Source of the DNA: Candidatus Staskawiczbacteria bacterium RIFOXYB1_FULL_37_44
Lineage (GTDB): Bacteria; Patescibacteriota; Minisyncoccia; Minisyncoccales; Staskawiczbacteraceae
DNA: 44,680 nucleotides
Direction of reading: 5' to 3'
Assembly (NCBI GenBank): GCA_001822065.1
Contig: MHPJ01000009.1
Span: 38,663-83,342 of the forward strand
Shown: piece after piece, positions 11,664 through 42,493 of the stretch
Position numbering within the stretch: position 1 is the first letter of the stretch
How the letters are laid out: every line of letters begins with the position of its first letter
Notes under the pieces: generated by a model
What the model saw: the letters and a program-made list of their open reading frames with translations, nothing else
What the model was told of the DNA's origin: nothing
Database searches by the model: none
Program-made: the position numbers and the translations under genes

Positions 11664-11729
11664 GAAAAGCGTATAAACTGTTTAAGGGGGTATTTTCTCA
11701 TGGAAGTTAATATTAGTTTATAGAAAAGT

Positions 11730-11759
11730 TTGACAAGTTTGGGTATGTTAGTGTATAAT
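11730..11759 (+). promoter_or_regulatory. Strong sigma70-type promoter of the GC-rich gene
   Basis: TTGACA (11730-11735), 18-nt spacer, TATAAT (11754-11759). A GGAGGAG Shine-Dalgarno lies 4-5 nt before the ATG at 11808. Confidence 0.55.
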
Positions 11760-11807
11760 AAAAGACGATGAGTTGGACATTGAAAATTATAACCCTGGAG
11801 GAGTCCA

Positions 11808-12809
11808 ATGAACAGATCAGTCGCAAACGCGCAGCCGATTTCATTGGTTCTCTCCAGAAAGAGAATCAAGAAAAAAGTTGTGGCAAAAAAGACGGTTGGA
11901 GAGTTCTTTAACTTTCACATCCGCCTTCTGTTGATCGAGCTTTTCGGCTTGATTTTCAATCACGACTGGATATTTTGGCTGATAGGATCAGCCAACAGGA
12001 AGCTCGGACTGATAAAGTCTGTTTTTCTTGTATATCCAGCCACCGAGGAGTACGAAAGAGCGTACACCTATAAGAAAAGGGCAAAGAGAATTGAATGGAG
12101 CCCTTGGCTTGTGGGTTTGTTCTGGCAAAACGGAAAAGTTGGCGTAAAATTCGCCATTTCTTCAAGCAACAGTCAATTTGTAGATCCGGGCAATAAGGAA
12201 AAACTCCGGAGCGTTGCCGAAAGGATGGAGAAAATCAGGCAACTTTTTCGCGCCGAGCATAAAACTTTTGCCGGCATTCTTCCCGGGGTGTTGCTTGCCA
12301 ATAGAATGGTGAGAAAAACTCCGGAAGCTGATGTAACGGTTGAAGTTGTGTGCCAGGCAATTGGCAAAGTAAAGTCGCTTGAAGGATTAGGCGATGATAC
12401 GCCAATTATTGTCCTTGGCGGGAGAGGATTTATAGGACGACGAGTTGTTTCCTCTCTGCCAAAGAACACTGCTTATTGTGTGGACATCGCAGGAAATAAT
12501 GGTCAATATGCTTGGCCGTCTCATTTGCAGGGCAGGCCCGTGTTGCTCGTCAACATAAGCTTGAACTCTGCATTGGGGCAATATGTCCATCTGCTTTGGC
12601 CCGAGGTTGTGATTCTCAACGAAGTTTACCCGGAGCCATCGCAGGAGTTAGTTGAACGATTAGAGGCTGTTGGCTCTCGCTGCTGGCATGTTGCGGGAGT
12701 TAAGGCAGGGGCTTTGCCTTCATTTCCCGGCGGTTATCAAGGGGGGATTCCTTGTTGTGCCGCATGGCAATCCGATGAGATGGAGGTTTTGCTCAAAAAG
12801 ATCGTTTAG
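11808..12809 (+). CDS. GC-anomalous NAD(P)-binding Rossmann protein, possibly of the acyl-ACP-reductase/shikimate-DH-like family
   Basis: IIVLGGRGFIGRRVVSSL is a dinucleotide-binding motif. The overall order of segments loosely parallels cyanobacterial acyl-ACP reductase (tentative, from memory). Hand counts of two 60-nt lines give 50-52% GC against about 30-38% in the flanks. Confidence 0.6.
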   Translation: MNRSVANAQPISLVLSRKRIKKKVVAKKTVGEFFNFHIRLLLIELFGLIFNHDWIFWLIGSANRKLGLIKSVFLVYPATEEYERAYTYKKRAKRIEWSPWLVGLFWQNGKVGVKFAISSSNSQFVDPGNKEKLRSVAERMEKIRQLFRAEHKTFAGILPGVLLANRMVRKTPEADVTVEVVCQAIGKVKSLEGLGDDTPIIVLGGRGFIGRRVVSSLPKNTAYCVDIAGNNGQYAWPSHLQGRPVLLVNISLNSALGQYVHLLWPEVVILNEVYPEPSQELVERLEAVGSRCWHVAGVKAGALPSFPGGYQGGIPCCAAWQSDEMEVLLKKIV

Positions 12810-12847
12810 GGCTTGTCATGGATTTGACAGGCCCTTTTTTGTTTTTT
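12809..12847 (+). terminator. Rho-independent terminator
   Basis: GGGCTTGTCA (12809-12818) pairs with TGACAGGCCC (12825-12834) with one G-U pair, followed by TTTTTTGTTTTTT. Confidence 0.7.
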
Positions 12848-12872
12848 AATTTTGGTGGTATAATAAAAAAAT

Positions 12873-30742: not shown

Positions 30743-30757
30743 ACGGAGAGAGGGTAT

Positions 30758-30785
30758 TTGACACAAATTTTTGAAGGAATATAAT
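30758..30785 (+). promoter_or_regulatory. Consensus sigma70-type promoter
   Basis: TTGACA (30758-30763), 16-nt spacer, TATAAT (30780-30785). Confidence 0.55.
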
Positions 30786-30825
30786 AGAGATATAAATAGA
30801 AAAATATATTAGCCAATAATTATCT

Positions 30826-31464
30826 ATGAAAGAATTAAACAAGGTTTTAAACGAGAACGAAAAGATTTTTTGGGAAGGAGCTCCAAGTTTCTGGCCATTT
30901 CTTTTTGGCAGATCCTTTCCGCTTGTAATATTTGGTTTCTTCTGGATGATGTTTTTGATTCCATTCATAGCAATGGCTATTTACGATATATTATTCGGCA
31001 GCCATATTATTGGTTTTGGAATTCTACTTCTGCCTCACTTTTGGGTTGGAATTTTTCTGTTGTTCGGACCCGCCGTCTACAGCATTTTGGTTTTTAAACA
31101 TACCCATTATGCGATTACAGACAAAAGGGTGATTATTCAGAAGGGTTGGATCGGCAGGGATTTTGAGATTGTTGATTTTGATCAGATCACGAATGCCGAA
31201 GTTAACGTTGGTCTCTTTGATAAAATATTTGGCAAAGGAGATACTGGCAGCATTTTAATATCAACAGCAGGAACTTTTACACAAACTCGCCGAGGATTAT
31301 CAAGTAAGCCGTATACAATGTATAATATAACTAATCCGTACGATGCTTTTAAGTTTTTGAAAAAAGTTTCTCACGACGTTAAAACAGATATTGAATATCC
31401 GAACAAGCTTCGCCCTGAAGAAAATCCAGGGTATGGTACAAATTATGACCCAAGTAAGAAATAA
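30826..31464 (+). CDS. Membrane protein with bacterial PH (YdbS/YdbT-like) domain
   Basis: Two TM helices, then HYAITDKRVIIQKGWIGRDFEIVDFDQITNAEV, typical of bPH_2 domains. Confidence 0.6.
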   Translation: MKELNKVLNENEKIFWEGAPSFWPFLFGRSFPLVIFGFFWMMFLIPFIAMAIYDILFGSHIIGFGILLLPHFWVGIFLLFGPAVYSILVFKHTHYAITDKRVIIQKGWIGRDFEIVDFDQITNAEVNVGLFDKIFGKGDTGSILISTAGTFTQTRRGLSSKPYTMYNITNPYDAFKFLKKVSHDVKTDIEYPNKLRPEENPGYGTNYDPSKK

Positions 31465-31485
31465 TTTTAGAAGAAACCGGCAGAT

Positions 31486-31513
31486 TTGACACGATTTTTT
31501 TATAGAATATAAT
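31486..31513 (+). promoter_or_regulatory. Consensus sigma70-type promoter
   Basis: TTGACA (31486-31491), 16-nt spacer, TATAAT (31508-31513). Confidence 0.55.
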
Positions 31514-31541
31514 GGTATTATAGGTAATAAATCATAAGAAT

Positions 31542-31835
31542 ATGCTTGATGCAGAAGATATAAAAAAATTAATCGAGGCGCAAGAGCCGGTTTTTGCAAC
31601 AAAAAAAGATTTGCAAGACATAAAGGATGATATTTTTGAGTTTAAAAGTGAAATTTTAACCGGACAAGATCAAATATTAAAAGAGTTAAAGACATTGACG
31701 GAGGAAAAAACAGTTAAAGACGCGCAAGAAAAAAGAGAGAAAAAAGTTTTGGAGATTCATGACAGCGCACTAAAAAATAATAAAATTTTATCAAAAGAGC
31801 AGTCACTGGAAATTGATAATTTGCGAGTATTTTAA
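31542..31835 (+). CDS. Small coiled-coil hypothetical protein
   Basis: A 97-aa charged helical sequence with its own promoter. No family recognised. Confidence 0.4.
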   Translation: MLDAEDIKKLIEAQEPVFATKKDLQDIKDDIFEFKSEILTGQDQILKELKTLTEEKTVKDAQEKREKKVLEIHDSALKNNKILSKEQSLEIDNLRVF

Positions 31836-31961
31836 AAATGAAAAAGATAATAAATAAAAATTTAAATACCTCCTTGTTGTTAAGCTTGCTTTTGTTATGC
31901 AAAGGTCCGGGAGGTTTTATTCTAAAAATTTAAAAATTACAAAATTTAAAAATTAGAAATG

Positions 31962-31986
31962 AAATCCTCTCGGCGAGGATTTTTTG
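31962..31986 (+). terminator. Hairpin plus T run at the left edge of GC-rich island 2
   Basis: AAATCCTC (31962-31969) pairs with GAGGATTT (31975-31982), followed by TTTTGTTTG. Confidence 0.55.
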
Positions 31987-32015
31987 TTTGTCCTTTCACA
32001 ATTAGAGGAGTTGCT

Positions 32016-32243
32016 ATGTGCGAACGAGATGGAAAGTTTGTGGTTCCTAAAAAACCGTCTGCCAAAATTAAGCGCAGATGGGTGGGTCTGGTTACTGCCA
32101 CGCGCGGAAAGCTTTACGAGGTGAATATTCTTCACACTGAAGATCCACGTTATGTTGGCGAACTTGTGACGCATTGTTTGCCCGAAGAGCTGATTGAATT
32201 TGGCTCTGAAGAAGCGGCAATGAATCATTTGTCAGGCAAATAG
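32016..32243 (+). CDS. GC-rich 75-aa hypothetical protein
   Basis: I chose the ATG at 32016 because AGAGGAG lies 5 nt upstream and the ORF-track start 31959 lies in the hairpin. MCERDGKFVVPKKPSAKIKRRWVGLVTATRGKLYEVNILHTEDPRYVGELVTHCLPEELIEFGSEEAAMNHLSGK. No family recognised. Confidence 0.5.
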   Translation: MCERDGKFVVPKKPSAKIKRRWVGLVTATRGKLYEVNILHTEDPRYVGELVTHCLPEELIEFGSEEAAMNHLSGK

Positions 32244-32273
32244 TTATTGCGCTCCCGGCTGTGCAGTGACTTT

Positions 32274-32305
32274 AGCGGTTTTTTGCCTCGAGGCAAAAAA
32301 CCGCT
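32274..32305 (+). terminator. Perfect 32-nt palindrome (terminator-like hairpin)
   Basis: AGCGGTTTTTTGCC-TCGA-GGCAAAAAACCGCT, followed by ATTTTATT. Confidence 0.6.
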
Positions 32306-32306
32306 A

Positions 32307-32322
32307 TTTTATTGTGCGACAA
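32307..32322 (+). repeat. 16-nt motif TTTTATTGTGCGACAA, copy 1 (contains the palindrome ATTGT-GCG-ACAAT)
   Basis: Identical 16-mer at 33520-33535. This copy ends 4 nt before a -35 box. Confidence 0.8.
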
Positions 32323-32326
32323 TGAC

Positions 32327-32355
32327 TTGACACGGAAAAAATAATATGCTATAAT
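32327..32355 (+). promoter_or_regulatory. Perfect consensus sigma70 promoter of the nucleotidyltransferase gene
   Basis: TTGACA (32327-32332), 17-nt spacer, TATAAT (32350-32355). Confidence 0.65.
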
Positions 32356-32403
32356 AAAAAAAGCACTTACAATCATTTACCGTTGAGATGAAAGGGTATA
32401 AAG

Positions 32404-33435
32404 ATGAGTAAAAGCACGCTGCTGGTTTCACAAAGTTCGTCGCTCCCGTTTGAGGAGCCGGTGTTTGTCCAGTCGAAAGAGTTGGACCTGGGTTGCCTGC
32501 CCGATTGGTCGGCAATACTTGAAGACATGCCCGTTGGCGTGGGCGTGAAAGGGGGAATTGCCAGAAAAATCCTGAAAGTGATTTCAGGGTTGAATGGTGA
32601 ACATCCGGACTTTGCGGCTGAAATGGACGGCAACGGCGATATTGATATTGTTGTTGCTGTTCCAAGGGTTTCCGCAGACCTGCGTCTGGCGATTCGGCAA
32701 CACTTCACCGGAATGAAATTTGGCGAAATGCAAGTGATGGCCAAGGACATCGAAGTTTCTGACAACCTTGAGCGGTATTTCCGTGTTAGGGATGTCACAA
32801 TGAACGAAGTCTTGGCTTTCCGCGTGAGCCATAATACGGTGATGCTGTACTTCACTGCGACCGCCCAGCAGGACATTAAAGGCGGGTTGATTTCACCGTC
32901 GATCCACTGTTTGCACACGAAGTTCGGCCAGGTTTGGCGGTATGATGAGAGAGGAAGATTTGTCATCTGCCAAAGCTTTGATCGCTGCCTGATTCGGTGG
33001 CTCAAGGGTCATGGACTTTACTACGGGATTCCAATGAGCACCTGGGATCACTATCGGGAAAGAAAGCTCGGTTTCCGGAGCATTTTCCGAATCTTCAAGA
33101 ATTTTGTAGGCGACGAGCAGAAGTTTCGTTTGTGCCATCGGCACTTGGCGGAGCTTGGGCTTATTGCGCGCGATTCTGACCCTAACTTGTTGTGGGGGTC
33201 GGCGATGTTTAATCTCAATGCGCGTCTGGCAAAGTTCGGCAAGAGGCTTTCATTTGTGGAGCCGGATGCCAAACAGATTGAAGATTGGATTTTGCGTAAA
33301 GAGCAAGAGTTCTGCGATTGGCAGTTTGATCGCTCAACGAGAGTGGCTATGGGCATGGAAGTTGAACCCGATACCGAGGCGCAGGTTTTCCTGCCCGACG
33401 GCCTCAAAAACTTCCCGGCATTTTACGGCCAGTAA
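32404..33435 (+). CDS. GC-rich divergent nucleotidyltransferase with CCA-adding enzyme/poly(A) polymerase head-domain motifs
   Basis: VKGGIARKIL...NGDIDIVV parallels GGxVRD...DxD. VRDVTMNEVLAF parallels RRDFTINA. TAQQDIKGGLISPS parallels the GG..DL....IR segment. The C-terminal ~170 aa are unrecognised. A sample line counts 53% GC. Confidence 0.6.
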   Translation: MSKSTLLVSQSSSLPFEEPVFVQSKELDLGCLPDWSAILEDMPVGVGVKGGIARKILKVISGLNGEHPDFAAEMDGNGDIDIVVAVPRVSADLRLAIRQHFTGMKFGEMQVMAKDIEVSDNLERYFRVRDVTMNEVLAFRVSHNTVMLYFTATAQQDIKGGLISPSIHCLHTKFGQVWRYDERGRFVICQSFDRCLIRWLKGHGLYYGIPMSTWDHYRERKLGFRSIFRIFKNFVGDEQKFRLCHRHLAELGLIARDSDPNLLWGSAMFNLNARLAKFGKRLSFVEPDAKQIEDWILRKEQEFCDWQFDRSTRVAMGMEVEPDTEAQVFLPDGLKNFPAFYGQ

Positions 33436-33492
33436 ACCAAAGTCGGTCTGCATTAGCAGAAAAAGCGAATACCGGCACAACCAAATTTCGCA

Positions 33493-33524
33493 AAAGCCCA
33501 ACGGTTTCCGTTCGGGCTTTTTTA
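33493..33524 (+). terminator. Rho-independent terminator
   Basis: AAGCCCAACGG pairs with CCGTT(C)GGGCTT (one bulge), followed by TTTTTT. Confidence 0.65.
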
Positions 33525-33535
33525 TTGTGCGACAA
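33520..33535 (+). repeat. 16-nt motif TTTTATTGTGCGACAA, copy 2
   Basis: Identical to 32307-32322, and again placed immediately 3' of a terminator hairpin. Confidence 0.8.
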
Positions 33536-33612
33536 ATGTGAAAATAGCAACTGTGGATAAGTCAGGCTAAAACGGCGATTTTACGACTATTTTTAATGGA
33601 ATATTAATACTG

Positions 33613-33676
33613 TTGACAGCATACTATAAAGTGGAGTATAAATAATATAAAGTGGAAGTAAGTGGATAACTGTGGG
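33613..33676 (+). promoter_or_regulatory. mraZ promoter with phased GTGG(A/G) repeats (candidate MraZ boxes)
   Basis: TTGACA (33613-33618), 18-nt spacer, TATAAA (33637-33642). GTGGA occurs at 33652 and 33662, and GTGGG at 33672, exactly 10 nt apart. An extra GTGGA lies at 33631. Confidence 0.55.
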
Positions 33677-33682
33677 TAAAAC

Positions 33683-34114
33683 ATGTTAATAGGACAATAC
33701 GAACATACAATTGATACTAAAAAGCGTTTGGCTTTGCCTGCGAAATTTAGAGGCGAGCTGGGCGACAAAGTTATAATCACAAGAGGAATTGAGGGCTGTC
33801 TTGCGGTATATACAGAAATGGAGTGGAAAATTATGTCAGATAAGCTTGGGGCTTTAACAATTAGCCAGGCAGAAGCAAGGTCTTTTACCAGAATGATTTT
33901 GGCAGGAGCTATGGAGGTCTCGCTTGATAAGCTGGGCAGAATATTGGTGCCAGATTACTTAAAAGATTATGCGGGCTTGAAAAAAAATGTGGTAATTTGC
34001 GGATTGTCAAATCGCCTTGAAATTTGGGATTCTGAAAAATGGGAAAAATACAAAAAGGAAGCTGAGAAAGGTGTGGACGAGATTGTTTCTAAATTGGGAA
34101 GTCTTGGAATTTAA
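33683..34114 (+). CDS. mraZ: Transcriptional regulator MraZ
   Basis: MLIGQYEHTIDTKKRLALPAKFR and a second SpoVT/AbrB-like repeat, LDKLGRILVPDYL. Confidence 0.9.
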   Translation: MLIGQYEHTIDTKKRLALPAKFRGELGDKVIITRGIEGCLAVYTEMEWKIMSDKLGALTISQAEARSFTRMILAGAMEVSLDKLGRILVPDYLKDYAGLKKNVVICGLSNRLEIWDSEKWEKYKKEAEKGVDEIVSKLGSLGI

Positions 34115-41299: not shown

Positions 41300-42493
41300 A
41301 TGAAAAATGAGGCTAAAAACAGAAATGTTTGGTATGTGGGGTGGTTGAGTTTTTTTGGCGGGATAAGCCAAGATATTTTTTCACCAATTTTACCGATTTA
41401 TTTGACCTCAATATTAGGTTTTGACAAAACTGTTGTTGGAATTGCCGAAGGCATTGTAGGCGCCAGCGCGCAAATTTTAAAAATTGCTTCGGGATATTTG
41501 TCCGATAAATTTAGCAAGCAAAAGCCCATAATTTTTTTGGGATATTTTTTATCAATGATCGGCCGGATTTTGCTTGTGTTTTTTACATCTATTGGGTGGG
41601 TGGTTGGCCTAAGATTATTAGACGGGACAGGCAAGGGAATCAAAGATCCGCCAAAAGATGTGCTGGTGGCTGGCTCGTCTGCAAAGGAAACCCGCGGAAA
41701 AAGTTTTGGAATTGCCAGAATGTTGGACACTTTGGGAAGCGTTGCTGGGCCGTTAATTTTATTTGTTTTATTGTGGATTTTTCAGGGCAGCGCATCGCTT
41801 TATCATAAAATTTTGCTTTTCTCTGCCGTACCGTTGATTATAACGCTCTTACTTGTCTTTAAACTGCGTGAACTTCCACTGGTTGTCATTGCGAGCCGCA
41901 GCGAAGCAATCCAGAGTAAGTACAATGACACAGGAAAATTGCCGAAAAATTTTTATATTTTTATTTTTATAATAATGATTTTCACATTGGGCAATTCATC
42001 TGACGCATTTCTAATTTTACGGGCAAAAAATTTGGGAATTACTTTGCTCCAAATTCCTTTGGTTATTGCGCTTTTCAATTTAATTTATGCGTTGGCTGCA
42101 GTTCCATTTGGAAGCTTGTCTGATAAAATTGGCAGAATTCCCACGCTTCTTATCGGCTGGCTTGCTTTCGCTTTGGTTTATTTAGGATTTGCCTTTGCCT
42201 CGGGGCCAATTTTAATTTGGTTTTTGTACGCTTTTTACGGAGTTTATTATGCGACAAGCGAAGGTGTTTCACGCGCATTGCTTGCAGACATTGTGCCGGC
42301 CTCGCGTCGCGGAAAAGCTTTTGGAATTTACGGAATGGCAGTTGGGCTGACAATTTTGCCTGCCAGTTTTTTAGCAGGCTTTTTATGGGACAAATTCGGC
42401 GCGCCCGTTCCGTTTTACTTTGGAGCAGTTATGTCGCTTATTGCATGTTTTGGCTTGCTTTTATTCGCGAAAAAACAGCGTTTTGCCTCTTGA
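41300..42493 (+). CDS. MFS transporter
   Basis: About 12 hydrophobic helices, with the MFS loop motifs GYLSDKFSKQKP and GSLSDKIGRIP. Confidence 0.8.
   Translation: MKNEAKNRNVWYVGWLSFFGGISQDIFSPILPIYLTSILGFDKTVVGIAEGIVGASAQILKIASGYLSDKFSKQKPIIFLGYFLSMIGRILLVFFTSIGWVVGLRLLDGTGKGIKDPPKDVLVAGSSAKETRGKSFGIARMLDTLGSVAGPLILFVLLWIFQGSASLYHKILLFSAVPLIITLLLVFKLRELPLVVIASRSEAIQSKYNDTGKLPKNFYIFIFIIMIFTLGNSSDAFLILRAKNLGITLLQIPLVIALFNLIYALAAVPFGSLSDKIGRIPTLLIGWLAFALVYLGFAFASGPILIWFLYAFYGVYYATSEGVSRALLADIVPASRRGKAFGIYGMAVGLTILPASFLAGFLWDKFGAPVPFYFGAVMSLIACFGLLLFAKKQRFAS
41885..41917. repeat. Half-copy of the 27465-27541 palindromic element embedded in frame in the MFS gene
   Basis: GTCATTGCGAGCCGCAGCGAAGCAATCCAGAGT compares with the reverse complement of the right half of the element, GTCATTGCGAGGAGCGTAGCGACGAAGCAATCCAGAGT. 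CGAAGCAATCCAGAGT (16 nt) and GTCATTGCGAG (11 nt) are identical. It is translated as VVIASRSEAIQSK in the central loop. Confidence 0.7.

Follow-up and report, generated by a model that had tools for sequence, protein, structure and literature searches.

What kind of protein is encoded by the GC-rich block of DNA that lies just upstream of mraZ in a Staskawiczbacteria genome, and how did it come to be there? The block is found in a 44,680-nucleotide stretch, hereafter the window, of contig MHPJ01000009.1 (positions 38,663 to 83,342 of the forward strand; Candidatus Staskawiczbacteria bacterium RIFOXYB1_FULL_37_44, assembly GCA_001822065.1). It contains two open reading frames (ORFs) on the forward strand, one of 75 residues, named small75 (32016–32243), and one of 343 residues, named NT343 (32404–33435). 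An original prediction made from the DNA alone took the larger product to be a horizontally acquired Pol-beta-type, class-II-like nucleotidyltransferase, working either as a minimal CCA-adding enzyme or as an RNA-modifying toxin with the 75-residue protein as its partner. The fold and the acquisition are borne out here. We consider it reasonably probable that NT343, an accessory gene transcribed on its own, came by horizontal acquisition, and that its product, a predicted catalytically competent enzyme, belongs to a previously unannotated family with class II head and neck architecture. That it is a housekeeping CCA enzyme is very unlikely, and a two-gene toxin module is not supported.

The block differs markedly from its surroundings in composition. 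In 500-nucleotide steps from 32001 to 33500 its GC content is 0.448, 0.506 and 0.502, compared with about 0.35 elsewhere; the cassette as a whole (31960–33540) stands at 0.483, NT343 at 0.510, small75 at 0.461 and the remaining window at 0.351. At third codon positions (GC3) NT343 reaches 0.60, versus 0.28–0.37 in the adjoining genes. Downstream lie mraZ (starting at 33683), rsmH, ftsL and a penicillin-binding protein gene (pbp). An assembly chimera, which the original prediction had named as a possible undoing of its claim, is ruled out because the locus has been assembled independently at least four times at 99.98–100% identity (MHPV01000022.1 at NCBI, two ENA assemblies and one from JGI). 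The NT343 allele of the window is intact in four assemblies, in which it is identical or one substitution apart. The GC content, the ORFs, an AGAGGAG ribosome-binding site, the promoter, the hairpins and the tRNA genes (tRNA-Trp with an encoded CCA, tRNA-Val and tRNA-Glu without) were all reproduced as first described.

NT343 belongs to a family that is unannotated: its members are everywhere labelled hypothetical protein and are missed by Pfam and NCBIfam. NT343 itself has no Pfam match at E ≤ 10, none in NCBIfam or PADLOC, and matches at chance level only in PHROGs. Likewise, 24 family members compared with Pfam gave no nucleotidyltransferase family and no match to PF01743. Against the sequences of the PDB, phmmer with NT343 and hmmsearch with the family profile returned chance matches only (uS13, an E2 acetyltransferase) and no nucleotidyltransferase. 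The family is nevertheless well delimited. In a collection of 5.8 billion proteins it comprises 13 clusters (clustering at 90% identity) at 40–100% identity, from bacteria of the candidate phyla radiation (CPR); the identities of the 13 close homologues to NT343 are 40–63%, and two of the 13 are named, to Staskawiczbacteria and Moranbacteria. An exhaustive phmmer search over 1.84 billion representative proteins gave 64 matches; beyond the close clusters the family has about 50 distant ones, and a stand-alone homologue occurs in a chytrid.

Conservation within this family falls on particular residues. There are 55 invariant columns in the alignment of close homologues, and ten residues (K49, G50, G51, R54, D79, D81, D130, N134, R194 and K201) are invariant in a wider alignment of 24 bacterial and eukaryotic sequences, in which D115, E117, R129 and T132 are nearly so. 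The motifs on which the original prediction was founded, GGIARK, DIDIVV and RDVTMNE, are present and invariant or nearly invariant in both the 13 close and the 24 wider homologues. The putative catalytic residues are K49, G50, G51, R54 and K55; D79 and D81; D115/E117; R129, D130, T132 and N134; and R194 and K201. The family also has features of its own: an N-terminal extension of 40 residues (PV.V....LPDW), a beta-hairpin insert (P165-x-x-H-C-L-H...W178), a spacing of 27 residues from GG to DxD, compared with about 12 in class II enzymes, and a conserved motif, R194-x-x-x-R198-x-x-K-G-H-G, in place of motif D.

An AlphaFold2 model of NT343 was built on the family alignment (predicted local distance difference test score, pLDDT, 87.7; predicted template-modelling score 0.86). 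In this model G50-G51 lies between strand 46–49 and helix 51–60, D79-x-D81 stands at the start of strand 80–85, and K114-D-I-E117 (KDIEV) lies in a long adjacent strand, 109–119. When the model was compared with the PDB by Foldseek, ranks 1–16 went without exception to CCA-, A- or CC-adding enzymes of class II, one of them a stand-alone head domain, with E values of 2e-4 to 2e-2 and probabilities up to 1.00; scores collapse beyond these. The best matches among the viral structures of BFVD were a mycobacteriophage tRNA nucleotidyltransferase and CCA-adding enzymes of giant viruses. A Pol-beta core is predicted in NT343 on three grounds, namely the invariance of G50, G51, R54, D79 and D81, a predicted secondary structure that fits, and a fold match with a probability of about 1.0.

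The model also bears on the C-terminal half, which had been described as unrecognisable and without an obvious tRNA-binding body or tail. Foldseek alignments to CCA-adding enzymes extend over about 290–335 columns of targets of 410–440 residues, and NT343 has 294 residues from GG to its C-terminus; neck-like helices are therefore present in its C-terminal half, and this part of the description does not hold in full. The other part probably does, since the model suggests that NT343 is about 90 C-terminal residues short of the canonical enzymes and that the distal tail domain is absent.

In class II enzymes, motif A contains the DxD carboxylates, motif B (DxxRRD) reads the ribose, a BxA motif is accompanied by a flexible loop, and motif D (EDxxR) serves as the template for CTP and ATP (PMC2910056). 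Which of these does NT343 keep? The family profile was aligned by hhalign with four class II CCA enzymes, three taken from PDB alignments and one from E. coli, the sequence of the last being validated by strong PDB matches. The local segment places NT343 L-E-R-Y-F-R-V-R-D-V-T-M-N-E over L-E-E-D-L-K-R-R-D-F-T-M-N-A, which is motif B. Compared with the full form of this motif, DxxRRDxxxN, D130 and N134 are invariant in the NT343 family and R129 and T132 nearly invariant, while the first arginine of RRD is not conserved. Motif D is missing: family alignments have no conserved Glu-Asp pair before R194, and the columns preceding it are F/L/V and D/S/A/V.

Taken together, the model and the conserved residues suggest that NT343 is probably an active, divergent class-II-like ribonucleotidyl transferase. 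The strand–G50G51–helix element, with K49, R54, K55 and K58, would hold the triphosphate of a ribonucleoside triphosphate, and two Mg2+ ions would be bound by D79 and D81 together with D115/E117 on the neighbouring strand. The ribose would be read by R129-D130-x-T132-x-N134, which corresponds to motif B. The nucleoside monophosphate would then be transferred to a 3'-OH, most likely that of an RNA or oligonucleotide end, which is taken as the default acceptor because every structural relative uses one. Since NT343 lacks EDxxR and apparently the distal tail, CCA specificity or canonical measurement of tRNA is not expected.

The second part of the question concerns the origin of the gene. Using MraZ as an anchor, 80 related loci were retrieved, with MraZ identities of 78–96%. 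All 80 keep the order mraZ-rsmH-ftsL-pbp and most keep a clpB-like gene upstream, and none of them contains NT343 or two genes that precede the block, a bPH_2 gene and a 97-residue gene. Over 47 related loci the clpB–mraZ spacer varies from 226 to 4356 bp and its contents are strain-specific, marking it as a hot spot for strain-specific genes; in the window it spans 30743–33682 (2941 bp, four ORFs). NT343 homologues in other genomes likewise depart in GC content from their host contigs, in either direction.

NT343 lies within a compact unit with its own signals. Its promoter (32327–32355, forward strand) reads TTGACA-17 nt-TG-TATAAT, a 12/12 match to the sigma-70 consensus with a TG extension, and the gene is followed by a terminator-like hairpin with a T-run (33492–33521, forward strand, found by folding; −16.6 kcal/mol, z-score −4.6). 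The gene itself is identified by homologues, invariant columns, the AlphaFold2 model, Foldseek and GC3. Promoter, gene and terminator are flanked by a 20-nucleotide direct repeat, GCT(A/T)TTTTATTGTGCGACAA, whose copies are 19/20 identical, 1213 nucleotides apart and the sole exact copies in the window. The left copy, GCTATTTTATTGTGCGACAA (32303–32322, forward strand), came from the repeat search, as did the right copy, GCTTTTTTATTGTGCGACAA (33516–33535, forward strand). A candidate third copy at 42244 lies inside a major facilitator superfamily transporter gene and was rejected as chance.

Within the repeat is a palindrome, ATTGTGCGACAAT, at 32311–32323 on the left (within the left repeat) and 33524–33536 on the right. 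It is conserved about 186–196 nucleotides upstream of the mraZ start in at least nine relatives (among loci L029–L043 and L054), and at 354 nucleotides in a tenth. In these relatives CTGTGGATAA and the mraZ promoter follow about 16 nucleotides after the palindrome, a spacing that the right-hand copy of the window matches exactly. The native regulatory region of mraZ (33549–33682, forward strand), with CTGTGGATAA, TTGACA...TATAAAT and GTGGA/GTGGG boxes, is conserved in relatives; judged by this conservation it is outside the insertion and sets its right-hand boundary. The array of GTGGA/GTGGG boxes around the promoter seems to resemble MraZ-box repeats, and the palindrome resembles an operator or a recombination site of the control region of the division and cell wall (dcw) cluster.

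Both signs of an inserted cassette, direct repeats of the target site and absence from relatives, are thus found for the NT343 unit, and together with GC3 (0.60 against about 0.3) they uphold the proposal of horizontal acquisition. In the simplest reading, a 1213-bp promoter–gene–terminator unit would have entered the hypervariable clpB–mraZ spacer of a Staskawiczbacteria-like CPR genome and would have duplicated a 20-nucleotide native site that holds the mraZ-upstream palindrome. It may have arrived by site-specific recombination or by another route. No integrase is adjacent to NT343 in the window, although a systematic search for recombinases was not made. The flanking repeat seems unlike attC or dif.

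The gene is also polymorphic. From 31836 on, the DNA recurs at 99.8% identity in two more assemblies, L015 and L017 (the L015 match starts at 31835/6), and the upstream genes of L015 differ. In both of these independent assemblies A33097T turns codon 232 of NT343 from AAG to TAG, indicating that part of the population, at least, can do without the gene. Both contigs stop at 33164 of the window, where there may be a strain-level breakpoint. At positions 1–58 of L017, window 32308–32345 is fused to 31782 onwards via a shared AAAAAATAAT, a junction that could stem from tandem duplication or circularisation of a 564-bp unit with small75, or from a chimeric read.

Is small75 the partner of NT343, as the original prediction had it? 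A single-sequence search for small75 found only itself, so that it seemed an ORFan, but tblastn in relatives and a profile search then showed otherwise. Seven relatives without NT343 have a homologue (34–46% identity by tblastn) in the corresponding place between clpB and mraZ, and alignment gives the family pattern MC..R..KFVVP.KP.A..GWWIG...IN.LWVE.PEY. The profile search extends the family to at least 21 clusters of 79–116 residues, the named ones from Patescibacteria or Staskawiczbacteria. The homologous genes are likewise GC-enriched relative to their own genomes, and part of the GC block is therefore intrinsic to small75. In the opposite direction, tblastn with small75 found no match in the fetched loci of NT343 homologues, and the gene neighbours differ in all seven other contexts of NT343 homologues, six close and one distant (P0019).

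The two genes also appear, from the signals between them, to be separate transcription units. After small75 comes a hairpin resembling an intrinsic terminator (32273–32306, forward strand; 15 pairs, −23.7 kcal/mol, z-score −6.7, followed by a T-run), and after this the consensus promoter of NT343. The folding energies of this hairpin and of the one after NT343 are far outside those of shuffled controls. Judged by distribution and gene context, small75 is an independent lineage resident of the clpB–mraZ spacer and not a partner of NT343; it lacks a toxin–antitoxin or padloc signature, and the pairing proposed at the outset does not stand.

The AlphaFold2 model of small75 (pLDDT 78) is a five-stranded sheet with a C-terminal helix, showing weak SH3/KOW/PWWP-like similarities and no significant fold match. 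Pfam, NCBIfam and PADLOC contain nothing usable for it, and PHROGs gives one chance-level match each for small75 and NT343 (E 0.3–0.4). The gene is preceded by a conserved non-coding leader (31836–32015, forward strand), recognised from folds and from the aligned upstream regions of seven small75 homologues. On the forward strand, alignment and folding place a terminator-like hairpin, ending GGGAGGTTTT, at about 31868–31915, and folding places a second, AAATCCTC-loop-GAGGATTTTTT (−10.2 kcal/mol), at 31961–31983. The 3' arms of the leader hairpins are conserved across the seven homologues, the relatives including L041, L054, L057, L093, L097 and L102. The common arrangement is a hairpin ending GGAGGTTTTTGATAAA, an A-rich spacer and then a AAATCCTC-loop-GAGGATTTTTG hairpin, with a compensatory CCCTCC/GGAGGG pair in L102. 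Against Rfam the leader gave no match, only sub-threshold noise; perhaps it acts as an attenuator or is a small RNA. The AGAGGAG ribosome-binding site (32003–32009, forward strand), read directly from the sequence, lies six nucleotides 5' of the ATG.

Several observations weigh against the reading of NT343 as an acquired, RNA-directed class-II-like enzyme. The template-modelling scores (TM-scores) of its Foldseek matches are low, at 0.33–0.37, which indicates that only the domains match and not their mutual orientation. At the level of sequence, all methods failed to connect the family with PF01743 or with a CCA enzyme of known structure, and the hhalign probabilities of 2.6–4.9% are non-significant. 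The GG...DxD register, which the original prediction held to be decisive, appears to be kept at the level of the fold; hhalign, at a probability of about 3%, aligned GG over GG and motif B, and left DxD out of register because the gap from GG to DxD is 27 residues in NT343 and not about 12. Most family members are acidic to neutral, with isoelectric points of 5.3–6.7, which is untypical of RNA-binding enzymes; only residues 166–250 are basic. An empty-site allele, with the small75 terminator, ATTGTGCGACAA and the mraZ region but without the 1213 bp, was not found among the fetched loci, and for this reason the case for insertion is built on the repeat and on comparison with more distant relatives. 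Finally, fusions to ATP-binding cassette (ABC) transporters in eukaryotes hint that the acceptor may be a nucleotide or a small molecule and not RNA.

These fusions deserve a closer description. NT343-like domains lie N-terminal to ABC-type transmembrane and nucleotide-binding regions in Chlorella sp. A99, Chromosphaera perkinsii, Creolimax fragrantissima and metagenomic proteins. The fusion proteins (P0015–P0018, P0020, P0024, P0036, P0041 and P0044) are 900–1660 residues long and have a common architecture. An optional nuclease (RNase T2 or Endonuclease I) is followed by a single transmembrane helix and the NT343-like domain; several more transmembrane helices then lead to an ABC-like nucleotide-binding domain. 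P0044 starts with Endonuclease_1 (Pfam, E 1e-32), and the N-terminus of P0017 corresponds to the C-terminal part of Ribonuclease_T2 (28.3 bits against a Pfam cut-off of 26). As far as could be found, this family of membrane fusions appears to be undescribed.

The fusions give rise to the alternative that NT343 is a nucleotidyltransferase directed at nucleotides or small molecules, or a nucleotide-binding module in scavenging or transport, and not an RNA 3'-end polymerase. The protist domain would be cytoplasmic, with a nuclease outside the cytoplasm on one side of it and an ABC transporter on the other. In CPR bacteria, which are nucleotide auxotrophs, the protein would work by itself, its substrates being nucleotides or oligonucleotides obtained by salvage. 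The position of the domain before ABC-type regions is consistent with this, as are the nucleases of P0044 and P0017, split from the NT-like domain by the single transmembrane helix, the acidity of most of the family and the apparent want of a tRNA-anchoring tail. CPR bacteria rely on nucleotide salvage, which such a function would suit. Yet each nuclease fusion has one protein cluster behind it, the matches to the ABC nucleotide-binding domain are weak, and bacterial NT343 loci have no consistently adjacent transporter or nuclease. Moreover, the nearest structures are all RNA 3'-end polymerases. Motif B reads the ribose of the donor and is silent on the acceptor. We regard this alternative as rather unlikely. 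A bolder proposal, which we think distinctly unlikely, is that the domain represents a new branch of the class II fold, ancestrally for scavenged nucleic acids, which became a membrane protein in protists and a mobile stand-alone gene in CPR bacteria. If it were true, NT343 would nucleotidylate or otherwise process oligonucleotides or nucleotides brought into the cell, or would tag RNA that is to be exported or degraded, an activity undescribed for this fold.

The same fold matches that support the preferred reading of NT343 as an accessory class-II-like enzyme might also be taken to mean that it adds CCA or A to tRNA 3' ends, or repairs them, as a minimal enzyme acquired to supplement tRNA maturation. 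The best of these matches are, after all, CCA-, A- and CC-adding enzymes, counterparts of motifs A and B are conserved, and the genes for tRNA-Val and tRNA-Glu, two of the three in the window, do not encode CCA. This function is nonetheless very unlikely: there is no EDxxR template to select CTP and ATP and some 90 tail residues appear to be missing, a family of 13 clusters in 5.8 billion proteins is rare and sporadic and is absent from 80 relatives with equal need, and the TAG allele at codon 232 is found in two independent assemblies. Patescibacteria are, in addition, reported to carry canonical class II CCA enzymes (bioRxiv 10.64898/2026.05.29.728689).

The proposal of an RNA-modifying toxin or defence effector, with the 75-residue protein as antitoxin or regulator, draws on the closeness of two small genes on the same strand in a common GC-elevated block. 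Some nucleotidyltransferases, MenT/AbiEii among them, are toxins; AbiEii and CARF genes accompany a distant homologue, P0019, in a variable region; and the nonsense allele could reflect a cost of the gene. We find this extremely unlikely, given that small75 occurs without NT343 in the seven relatives and, outside its own locus, on NT343-free contigs among those examined from its 21 or more clusters; that no small75 lies beside NT343 homologues, whose neighbours are not conserved; that the strong terminator and the promoter of NT343 separate the two units; and that neither protein matches padloc, nor ncbifam. Just as unlikely is a functionless passenger, a recent transfer already decaying in the population. 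The nonsense allele of L015 and L017 and the foreign codon usage could be read in this way, but the window allele is intact in four assemblies, conservation is strong and residue-specific from bacteria to eukaryotes, and the promoter is a perfect consensus.

Upstream of the block, a second 12/12 promoter, TTGACA-16-TATAAT (31486–31513), precedes an accessory 97-residue coiled-coil ORF (31542–31835). The bPH_2 gene (30826–31464), which encodes a bacterial PH domain, has homologues at 49–67% identity that share no neighbours. They come from metagenome-assembled genomes labelled Woesearchaeota, Pacearchaeota, Saccharibacteria and Gammaproteobacteria, and the gene appears to be promiscuously transferred. 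It was tried as an anchor in the search for an empty site and set aside, its homologues being scattered without synteny in unrelated archaea and bacteria; the MraZ anchor worked. A second GC-anomalous gene (11808–12809, in region 11680–12850) encodes 333 residues (GC 0.47, GC3 0.49) with a Rossmann-like GGRGFIG motif, has its own TTGACA...TATAAT promoter and terminator, and is without a Pfam match; considered as a paralogue of NT343, it proved unrelated. The GC-elevated first kilobase of the window is part of a 467-residue ORF (286–1689) with a C-terminal PKD domain.

What does NT343 add to the picture of this fold? Among class II nucleotidyltransferases, small changes to one fold have produced CCA-, CC-, A- and poly(A)-adding specificities. 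The NT343 family keeps the predicted metal-binding and ribose-reading residues. It has another motif where the base template would be and seems to have lost the part that anchors tRNA, and a different donor or acceptor is therefore to be expected. It spans ultra-small CPR bacteria and unicellular eukaryotes, the latter including a green alga, ichthyosporeans and a chytrid. It amounts to a well-delimited orphan enzyme family and not to a new kind of system, although the eukaryotic fusions, with their ABC transporters and nucleases of a secreted type, could raise its importance. At the locus itself, strain-specific genes gather in the clpB–mraZ spacer of the lineage, and a short palindromic site can be recognised at the point of insertion.

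As a putative mobile unit, NT343 may be compared with integron cassettes and with the Xer-dependent modules known as IMEX and pdif. Like them, it consists of a single gene in 1.2 kb, is bounded by repeats of a short palindromic native site and is free of a recombinase; unlike them, it has its own promoter and terminator. As an enzyme, it shares with the toxins MenT/AbiEii (DUF1814) and MNT-HEPN, in the reading preferred here, membership of the Pol-beta superfamily, modification of RNA 3' ends and a frequent home on accessory DNA. Those toxins, however, form another structural family that is absent from the fold matches of NT343, and they have an obligatory conserved partner, which NT343 is without.

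The closest comparison is with the class II tRNA nucleotidyltransferases and poly(A) polymerase I (PF01743), the best and sole consistent Foldseek matches; these include the CCA enzymes of B. stearothermophilus (1MIV) and T. maritima (3H39/5HC9), the A-adding enzyme of A. aeolicus (4WBY/4WC2) and a CC-adding enzyme (3WFR). In its predicted structure NT343 resembles them in the strand–GG–helix element, in the DxD that opens the next strand and in the third acidic residue on an adjacent strand. It resembles them also in L-E-x-x-F-x-x-R-D-x-T-x-N, which corresponds to LExDLxRRDFTINA, and in a D...G..I/V-R/x-P turn at the position of motif C. It differs in having no EDxxR, no arrangement of BxA and flexible loop and apparently no tail domain, and in a distribution that is sporadic rather than universal. 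A stand-alone head domain is already known in S. pneumoniae NP_344798.1 (2LA3), which was ranked 14 by Foldseek over 158 columns (root mean square deviation 4.6; TM-score on the target side, TMt, 0.46), with no sequence relationship detected. Whereas that protein, of 191 residues, consists of the head only, NT343 adds a conserved helical C-terminal half of 180 residues and motifs of its own.

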